A stretch of DNA of 49,323 bases from an uncultured Nioella sp. (GTDB lineage: Bacteria > Pseudomonadota > Alphaproteobacteria > Rhodobacterales > Rhodobacteraceae), in assembly GCA_963975135.1 (NCBI GenBank), contig CAXBGQ010000001.1, positions 1 to 49,323 on the forward strand, written 5' to 3'. Under the pieces are notes generated by a model. That model searched no databases. It saw only the letters and a program-made list of their open reading frames with translations, and was not told where the DNA came from. Positions 2-1,432 of the stretch are shown here, in pieces (the stretch's first letter is position 1; each line of letters starts with the position of its first letter). The translations under genes and the position numbers were made by a program.

Positions 2-475
2 CGCCGCAGGGGCCTGCAACGCCGAATGCAGAACATAAGGCGCGCCATAGCGCATCTTGCACAGCCGCGCGGTCTGCTCCATCGGCGTCAGGAACGTGCG
101 CAACGGGAAATGCTGGTATCCTTCGGGGGTATAAGCCTCGGACGATCCCGCCGCCGAAATCGCCTGCATCAGGATCTTTCCCATCAGCTTGTCACCGCCC
201 GCGCCGTAGGCAAAGCCATGTTCCAGAACCAGGTCGACCCATTCCTTGATCAGCGACGGCGTCGAATACCAAAAGAGCGGATGCTGAAACAGGATCACGT
301 CATGCTCCAGCAGCAGCGCCTGTTCACGATCGATATTGATGTCCTGACGTGGGTAGCTGGCATAAAGATCGACGCGGGTAATGCCCTGAACGGCAGTCGC
401 TGCGTCATACATCGCCTGATTGACGTGGCTGTGGCGGTGGCCAGGGTGGGCATAATATAGAAGAATGCGGGCCAT
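2..475 (-). CDS. NAD(P)H-dependent oxidoreductase, flavodoxin-2 fold (KefF/KefG-like); 3' end runs off the window
   Basis: Not in the ORF track. Hand translation from ATG at 475 (SD AAGGA upstream): MARILLYYAHPGHRHSHVNQAM...DLYASYP...QHPLFWYSTPSLIKEWVDLVLEHGFAYG. AHP and QxPxxWYSxP..LKEW.D motifs are typical of this family. Confidence 0.85.
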   Translation of the reverse strand, partial: MARILLYYAHPGHRHSHVNQAMYDAATAVQGITRVDLYASYPRQDINIDREQALLLEHDVILFQHPLFWYSTPSLIKEWVDLVLEHGFAYGAGGDKLMGKILMQAISAAGSSEAYTPEGYQHFPLRTFLTPMEQTARLCKMRYGAPYVLHSALQAPAA

Positions 476-580
476 GCGGTTTCCTTGTTTCCGGTGCGGT
501 CAGTAGACCCCGATCAGCCCGATATGAAAAGGCCGGCAACAATGCACCCGTTCATAAGGTTGCAAAGCTGATCTGCAAAC

Positions 581-610
581 GAAAAGGGCCGCCATGTGCG
601 GCGACCCTTC
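581..610 (-). terminator. Rho-independent terminator closing the small 581-770 transcript
   Basis: Minus strand reads AAGGGTCGCC-gcacat-GGCGGCCCTT followed by TTCGTTT. Confidence 0.75.
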
Positions 611-681
611 ACGAGAATTTAAGGAGGTGGGGCGGGTTAGACCGAAGTCCCACCTGGGGCGGTTTCCACCGCTAGGATTGC

Positions 682-738
682 CTAGAGGCGACCTCCCCAG
701 ATTTTCCCGACTCCATTCTCCAATACCTCTCTTGACAC
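682..738 (-). CDS. Putative 18-aa small protein MSREVLENGVGKIWGGRL, or an sORF within an sRNA
   Basis: GTG start 7 nt after AGGAGG within AAGGAGGTGATCCAG; TAG stop at 682-684; own terminator downstream. Confidence 0.45.
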   Translation of the reverse strand: MSREVLENGVGKIWGGRL

Positions 739-808
739 TGGATCACCTCCTTCCATTTCGTTGCTGTTAGAAGAAGGTTGCCATAGATTTTGTGTTTGTC
801 AAAACATT

Positions 809-1432
809 TTATGCAATTTGTGCTGTCAACCGCGCGGTGATCATACGAAACGGCACCAGCGCCAACAGCGCCAGAGACAGCTTTACAAACCAGTCGGCAA
901 CCGCCAACGACACCCAAAGCGGGGCCTCGGGCCCGGTGCCCAGAAGCGGCAGGATCTCGCCGGCCCAGCCGACATCATTGCCCGGCTCAAGCCAGATCAG
1001 GCTGGCCGAAAAGGCGATGCTGAAAAACAGTGCCGTATCCACCGACGATCCCACCAGCGTCGAGGCCAGCGGTGCCCGCCACCAGGCCCCCGAGCGCATG
1101 CGGTCGAAGATGGCGACGTCCAGCAGTTGCGCGGTCAGAAAGGCCAGCCCCGAGCCGACTGCGATCCTGAGGGTCACCAGCGGGCCAAATTCGCCGATGA
1201 TCTGGGTGCCGATCAGCGAAGAGGCCACGCCAACGACAAAGCCCGCAAACACAACACGGCGCGCGGCGGCAACACCATAGACGCGGTTCATGACATCGGT
1301 GACCAGAAAGGCCACCGGATAGGTGAAGGCCCCCCAGGTCAGCCATTGGCCGAACAGGAACTGAACGAGGATATTGGAGGCGACAACAACGGTCGCCATG
1401 GCAAGAATGCCGGGCAGGTGAATGCGGGTCAT
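809..1432 (-). CDS. yhhQ: Queuosine precursor transporter (YhhQ/VUT family)
   Basis: Hydrophobic 207 aa with ASNILVQ, TWGAFTYPVAFLVTD, RIAVGSGLAFLTAQLLD and S..DT..FFSIAF motifs. Confidence 0.9.
   Translation of the reverse strand: MTRIHLPGILAMATVVVASNILVQFLFGQWLTWGAFTYPVAFLVTDVMNRVYGVAAARRVVFAGFVVGVASSLIGTQIIGEFGPLVTLRIAVGSGLAFLTAQLLDVAIFDRMRSGAWWRAPLASTLVGSSVDTALFFSIAFSASLIWLEPGNDVGWAGEILPLLGTGPEAPLWVSLAVADWFVKLSLALLALVPFRMITARLTAQIA

Follow-up and report, generated by a model that had tools for sequence, protein, structure and literature searches.

The small gene rreR in an uncultured Nioella sp.: comparative analysis of a probable structured mRNA with an extended Shine-Dalgarno sequence

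The described rre genes and the identity of the locus

The experimentally studied sister of rreR is rreB of the Bradyrhizobiaceae, which the text of Hahn et al. (RNA Biol 14:1353, PMC5711450) describes as a 165-nt RNA that co-sediments with the 30S subunit, has its own mapped start site and adjoins a tRNA gene. According to the same text its translation is very weak, being limited by the long Shine-Dalgarno (SD) sequence and the GTG codon; the half-life of the RNA increases from 10 to 37 min once the start is removed, its molecules are far fewer than ribosomes, and 20-fold overexpression has no effect on growth (PMC5711450). For rreR that text gives sequence conservation and an unstructured synthetic peptide only, the lack of structure being seen by CD and NMR (PMC5711450, PMC7217052), and it finds no similarity between the RreB and RreR peptides despite their identical ribosome-binding sites (RBS; PMC5711450). 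Kubatova et al. list the D. shibae RreR sequence as SP-3 in their supplement (PMC7217052).

The locus analysed here lies in a stretch of 49,323 nt from an uncultured Nioella sp., referred to below as the window. On the evidence of its sequence it is rreR, the gene already published by Hahn et al. (PMC5711450), because a BLAST homologue of the window (L011, E 1.1e-25) encodes the D. shibae RreR of the SP-3 entry letter for letter and the window peptide is identical to the published one at 10 of 18 residues. It shares with rreR of the Rhodobacter-Roseobacter clade an extended SD whose last complementary base is the G of the GTG start (position 738), an 18-codon frame, homology to RreR and the lineage; named records with the same 18-codon type come from Ruegeria, Sulfitobacter, Alloyangia and other Rhodobacteraceae/Paracoccaceae. 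A complementarity of at least 16 nt to the 16S rRNA 3' end, which also belongs to the definition of rreR, is reached only when one wobble is allowed: the window has 15 perfect pairs plus a wobble, in contrast to the 16-17 perfect pairs given in the text of the published report. Compared with rreB as described there, the locus has the same RBS letters through the first codons (the same RBS letters stand in the rreB primers of the Hahn et al. supplement, PMC5711450), a short AC-rich leader, a predicted paired SD, a terminator and a similar predicted RNA size, whereas rreB encodes an unrelated peptide of 14 codons, holds its SD in a local hairpin and not by a distal anti-SD, and has the tRNA gene as its neighbour.

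The preliminary description of this DNA had presented the RNA as an unannotated gene whose novelty would end with a match to a characterised RNA. The word unannotated may hold for the assembly, but the gene is published as rreR, and the claim of novelty falls with it. The text of Hahn et al., figures aside, contains no self-caging fold, promoter, Vut_1 linkage or codon analysis of rreR (PMC5711450). A literature search, conducted mostly at the level of abstracts and outside subscription papers and bioRxiv supplements, returned no functional follow-up on rreR. Two supplement files on Paracoccus sRNAs, which possibly hold no sequences, did not yield the rreR motif (PMC5107571), rreB or rre is not named in the main text of an S. 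meliloti Ribo-seq paper (PMC10117765), and a full-text search with the motif returned, among the matches listed, what look like uses as a 16S primer.

The 16S rRNA match, the gene parts and the neighbourhood

The coordinates of the gene parts and of the adjoining genes are collected in Table 1. The predicted 5' end (about position 768) is 7 nt after the -10 T, and the 3' end falls in the U-tract.

Table 1. Features of the rreR locus and its flanks (window positions; all on the minus strand)
Feature	Position	Strand	Basis
Flavodoxin_2 (PF02525) gene, downstream, cut by the window start	2..475	-	Pfam
Intrinsic terminator: stem 610-586, U-tract 585-577	577..610	-	Sequence; terminator scan
Predicted rreR transcript, ~190 nt	578..768	-	Deduced from promoter and terminator
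Internal anti-SD, pairs with SD 752-744 (helix P1)	621..629	-	Predicted fold
Small P5 hairpin, its loop being UUCG in the window	635..654	-	Predicted fold; comparative
Long stem P4: codons ~12/13-19 with the 3' UTR, capped by stop-codon hairpin 685-672	654..700	-	Ensemble probability ~0.9
rreR ORF: GTG start, 18 codons, TAG (684-682)	682..738	-	Sequence; homologues
Hairpin P2 burying the start codon (742-734 with 727-719)	719..742	-	Predicted fold; comparative
Extended SD	738..754	-	15 nt perfect + G-U + G-C against the 16S rRNA 3' tail
TRTG-extended -10 element: hexamer 780-775, 16-nt spacer	775..785	-	Predicted
Predicted sigma70-type promoter, -35 hexamer TTGACA	797..802	-	Sequence; predicted
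Vut_1 (PF02592) transporter gene, upstream, co-oriented	809..1432	-	Pfam 1e-28

The 15-nt match to the 16S rRNA 3' end (752-738, minus strand), the GTG frame of 18 codons with its TAG stop (738-682) and the intrinsic terminator, all reported in the preliminary description, were confirmed, and its estimate of a ~190-nt RNA agrees with the length deduced from the promoter and the terminator. The last G of the 15-mer opens the GTG start. When both strands are counted, the 2.9-Mb assembly has a single occurrence of the 15-mer, as against about 0.005 expected at uniform composition, and the complement of the 15-mer followed by TCT is found in a same-genus genome (G201) and in 18 other 16S-type matches. 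Since the host's own assembly is without the 16S 3' end, the tail of G201 serves as reference; against it the complementarity covers 754-738, 17 nt in all, one of the pairs being a G-U wobble. The predicted duplex between the SD and the 16S tail has an energy of -34.5 kcal/mol, versus -9.2 for AGGAGG alone. Of the 42 changes that the homologues show at positions 2-16 of the 17-mer, 36 retain a G-U pair with 16S rRNA, and 29 of these 36 are transitions at a single A-to-G site, which suit the internal P1 pair as well and probably represent few events. Two trivial explanations of the match were rejected: a 16S rRNA gene fragment, since the flanks diverge from true 16S ends directly after the 15-mer and the Rfam scan gave no rRNA match, and chance, since the 15-mer is unique in the assembly and a 19-nt version of the motif, with one mismatch allowed, is present in 153 of 201 family genomes with 0 for the reversed control.

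BLAST with window 560-830 gave matches in 146 of the 201 family genomes, and 130 of these 146 loci were analysed (the 30 best and 100 further down the ranking). These relatives keep the SD, the start, the length of the frame and the terminator, as the preliminary description had asked of a genuine gene. A GTG followed by exactly 18 codons is seen in 122/130 loci; six others have 20-26 codons, and two open with ATG one base earlier and have 18 (L002) and 13 codons. The motif occurs once per genome except in G006, which carries two copies (G006:C6:442-460 and G006:C84:86274-86292), one with ATG and one with GTG. ATG-type frames of 23-26 codons with the pattern M-S-S-E...E-Q-P make up a second alphaproteobacterial subtype. 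The motif is missing from 48 of the 201 genomes, about one quarter, some of which have a diverged copy (G078). Three loci (L275 of G127, L272 and L190) are degenerate, with a shortened 16S match or a changed frame length, which suggests, judged from the sequences, decay of rreR in some lineages.

Upstream of the gene, TTGAC[AT] is found 62-66 nt before the start codon in 70/128 homologues, and TTGAC[AT]-N16-NANNNT in 67/128; the predicted promoter is absent from the output of the window's consensus promoter scan. The spacer is itself conserved (window 783-794), with CAC-N7-GTG in 53/128 homologues, a pattern that may possibly be a regulator site or may simply reflect the extended -10 element. 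The preliminary description had called the transcript stand-alone, and the conserved promoter-like site at 802-775 speaks for this part of its claim; against it, the co-oriented Vut_1 gene stops 7 nt before that site begins, and the gap is free of listed terminator-like sites.

Proteins of the Vut_1 family import queuosine precursors. A Vut_1 gene stands beside rreR in 123 of 129 family loci (29/29 long and 94/100 short ones). Of 24 rreR-like loci that the motif alone picked out among the matches listed, 22 have it upstream. This synteny, together with the short gap without a listed terminator, would suit a cis element of the vut mRNA, in which read-through ends at the rreR terminator and ribosome loading of the mini-ORF sets vut mRNA stability. 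We consider such a role very improbable: rreR has its own conserved promoter-like site, Vut_1 lies within 300-400 nt upstream in 0 of 95 other motif loci (among the matches listed), rreB has its own mapped start site beside a tRNA gene in the text of Hahn et al. (PMC5711450), and shared ancestry of gene order accounts for the synteny. That the RNA serves the Flavodoxin_2 gene downstream as its leader or attenuator was likewise considered, and was ruled out because that gene adjoins rreR in 0 of 129 family loci.

Beyond Vut_1 the linkage of rreR looks loose, an aminotransferase gene being present in 4/29 long loci. In the window, smpB (PF01668; 4295-4828, minus strand) lies 3.5 kb upstream, followed by rhodanese, GNAT and aminotransferase genes. 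Between the aminotransferase and Vut_1 genes are two AT-rich inverted repeats (1524-1594), terminator-like on opposite strands, and Rfam gave no riboswitch match at 1524-1594.

Fold, selection and proposed mechanism

The predicted rreR transcript folds at -86.5 kcal/mol, and the 201-nt minus strand (575-775) folds better than 200/200 shuffles (z -4.5). A consensus fold was derived by taking every second locus of the 122, 61 in all, and comprises P1, P2, P4, P5 and the terminator; 95.3% of its cells are paired, a value that 0/500 shuffles reach, with slid controls at 44-54%. Of the three hairpins in the preliminary description, all arms exist as sequence, but only the first is predicted to form in the window ensemble, with probability 0.97-1.0, as the hairpin that caps P4; for the second and third the probability is 0.0. 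The 3' arm of the third overlaps the internal anti-SD, which is itself paired with the SD (0.97-1.0, the probability of P1 in the window ensemble).

The preliminary description had also called for a conserved frame and covarying stems, and the frame is there in 122/130 loci; P4, P5 and the terminator have two-sided changes, and P1 and P2 show none. At the base of the P4 stem the two-sided changes number 23, 17 and 27 of 61, and in P5 14 and 22 of 61, and the terminator has two-sided changes at all 9 consensus pairs. For P1 and P2 there are zero two-sided changes among the 61 aligned sequences, and their support comes from wobble-only variation and folding. In P1, 99.5% of cells are paired among the 61 sequences; the nine pairs of P2 are kept in 105-122 of 122 ORFs, with changes almost all one-sided. 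One-sided variation is what a 5' strand fixed by the 16S tail would lead one to expect, but it leaves P1 and P2 less firmly shown than the other helices. Pairing of the SD with the 3' part exceeds 0.5 in 115/122 homologue ensembles and also in 31/61 controls with a shuffled 3' UTR. As modelled, the SD is predicted to be caged by the internal anti-SD and the start codon in a hairpin.

The internal anti-SD motif is present in 113/128 loci as against 663/2600 random windows, and a ribosome occupying the SD would free it. Alphaproteobacterial sRNAs are known to use loops of the anti-SD kind, and the CU-rich 3' segment, freed by translation, could in principle act in trans by base pairing to block the SDs of other mRNAs. 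That the RNA works in this way seems to us very unlikely, as pairing in cis to the invariant SD accounts in full for the variation of the anti-SD. The preliminary description had offered both a dual sRNA/small-protein gene and an RNA that holds 30S subunits unusually tightly; on our analysis its small-ORF and tight-30S readings are consistent with the rreB data in the text of Hahn et al. (PMC5711450), and in the sequence comparisons we found no evidence for a trans-acting sRNA role.

Selection on the frame was examined in statistics that pool related sequences, so that kin are not independent. Codon 19 is a stop in 122/128 homologues (TAG 52, TGA 50, TAA 20), and TGG was observed 0 times, versus about 21 expected, on a naive estimate, if both purines varied freely. 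The entropy per codon position is flat (0.84, 0.87 and 0.82 bits), and pN/pS over all pairs is 0.85 for the peptide frame and 0.76 and 0.78 for the two shifted frames; codons 2-12 give 0.35-0.65, and codons 13-18 give 1.07-1.12. A number of synonymous codons are frozen (Arg3 AGA 113/113, Leu6 TTG 115/119, Glu7 GAG 120/121), while Ser2, Arg8 and Gly11 vary synonymously. Taken together, these sequence statistics favour selection on fold, initiation and termination over selection on the peptide, and weak selection on the first 12 residues is possible.

Another reading, in line with the framing in the text of Hahn et al. (PMC5711450), is that what counts is the RreR peptide itself, perhaps a microprotein that binds the ribosome or membrane and is made at very low level. 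The long SD and the cage would then only limit its expression. The fixed length of 18 codons, the N-terminal consensus S-R-x-x-L-E-x-G-V-G-T with its low pN/pS, and Arg8, which is retained via AGA, CGA and AGG, would agree with such a product, but its C-terminal third drifts freely and sits in a covarying stem, the conserved residues rest on one frozen codon each, partly explained by P2 pairing, and the published peptide data, namely the absence of structure by CD/NMR and the dissimilarity of RreB and RreR though the RBS is identical, also weigh against it. We therefore regard a peptide-centred function as unlikely.

Instead, we propose with moderate confidence, from the comparative evidence, that rreR is a structured mRNA gated by the ribosome, and that selection keeps the docking of 30S and the rare translation, and not the peptide. 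In the closed RNA, P1 and P2 would cage the initiation site and P4 would hold the second half of the ORF with the stop codon, as predicted by folding with comparative support. By analogy with rreB, the 17-bp duplex with the 16S tail would outcompete the cage, and the 30S subunit would bind tightly and initiate slowly at GUG. A rare elongating ribosome would then melt P4, stop inside it, and remodel or destabilise the RNA; that melting P4 may destabilise the RNA is suggested by the reported increase of the rreB half-life without the start (PMC5711450). More speculatively, the level or shape of the RNA may report the supply of free 30S subunits.

The strength of the duplex and the reported co-sedimentation of rreB with 30S (PMC5711450) could alternatively mean that the RNA is a sink or protector that occupies the 16S tail to park or shield subunits, much as a hibernation factor does. 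We hold this to be distinctly unlikely. The hibernation factor HPF (PF02482) is encoded in 200/201 family genomes, with or without rreR (the host's own copy is present, cut by a contig end), and this weakens a role as ribosome sink and argues against the RNA as a substitute for the hibernation factor in this family; moreover, the text of Hahn et al. reports rreB to be far scarcer than ribosomes and its overexpression to be without effect on growth (PMC5711450), and a sink would leave the fixed stop codon unexplained.

The wider rre class

No Rfam family was matched by the window above threshold. The nearest, RF01867 (CC2171), gave 28.8 bits (E 0.0015) against a gathering cut-off of 75, and membership of the window in that family was rejected; the other Rfam match was a terminator-driven one to ctRNA. 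Among 10 loci tested, the CC2171 cut-off was passed by Brevundimonas L109 (91.1 bits) and Methylobacterium L077 (96.7 bits), and other rreR loci scored 42.5 and 32.5 bits. The 5' consensus of the CC2171 model is the same extended SD with GTG; only this motif and the terminator match, and CC2171 frames differ from rreR in having 21-23 codons and another sequence type. Because the rre loci L077 and L109 pass its cut-off, CC2171 is, on sequence grounds, the Caulobacterales/Rhizobiales type of rre. The CC2171 loci L077, L109 and L128, labelled non-coding, have the extended SD and a frame of 21-23 codons starting V-S-H-C, so that this family is probably one of small mRNAs. CC2171 has been detected by Northern blot in Methylorubrum (bioRxiv 10.1101/2022.01.24.477521), and neither CC2171 nor Rfam is named in the main text of Hahn et al. 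(PMC5711450).

A scan of all genomes with the motif, in which taxon names were taken from record titles and some may be mis-binned, gave at least 119 loci; among the matches listed, 109 have frames of up to 30 codons, 9 have longer ones and 1 is cut. The motif was also counted in four genome samples, each tally including its motif-bearing centre genome: 22/201 genomes for the window's class, 10/121 for the phylum of a Phycisphaerales record, 8/121 for Acidobacteriota and 5/151 for the class of a Bordetella record, the reversed controls giving 0, 2, 1 and 0; the last tally also counts the unpublished genome G690, which was left out of all further analysis. On inspection, 9/10, 9/10, 4/9 and 2/5 of the loci examined resemble short-ORF genes, the rest looking like chance matches or ordinary genes.

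Several types recur among these loci. In seven (L034, L050, L069, L127, L130, L141 and L303; Acidobacteriota where titled) the extended SD is followed by a 6-codon frame of the V-R-Y-x-L-R type and immediately by a terminator, an arrangement that amounts to a minimal rre-like RNA of about 90 nt. Planctomycetota loci (L047, L051, L053, L070, L074, L080, L082, L089, L096, L149 and L289-L297) have the extended SD with GTG and frames of 9-22 codons, many of which show a D-C...G-L pattern; hairpins and terminators come after the frames. Further rre-like mini-genes of 12-26 codons outside the Alphaproteobacteria are L073 and L087 (Burkholderiales), L040, L106 and L310 (Gammaproteobacteria), and L043, L094, L103, L118, L134, L302 and L305. 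In L093 (Azospirillum, with an ATG start), L116 and L119 the same extended SD opens frames of 57-60 codons resembling small proteins with a signal peptide. In L046 a roseobacter-type rreR start stands at the end of a contig titled Cytophagales, which is probably mis-binned.

A tentative and rather doubtful extension of the reading of rreR as a ribosome-gated mRNA is that rre genes are multi-phylum, ribosome-operated RNA switches, in which a hidden complement of the 16S tail opens to a free 30S subunit only, and a disposable mini-ORF whose length is fixed lets the translating ribosome refold or destroy the RNA, which would make the RNA a gauge of small subunits standing idle. On this view rreB, rreR, CC2171 and the elements from Planctomycetota, Acidobacteriota and Gammaproteobacteria would be one device with unrelated peptides.

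As publication of the gene, together with its long SD and 18-residue product, dates from 2016-17, the locus itself carries little weight as a discovery. What the comparative data add is a focus on how the RNA folds and on its being translated, with the exact helices to mutate. They also argue against a substitute for the hibernation factor in the family, and connect CC2171, an orphan family of Rfam, with the rre class. If the reading as a gauge of idle subunits were true, rre genes would represent a new way for bacteria to sense their supply of ribosomes.
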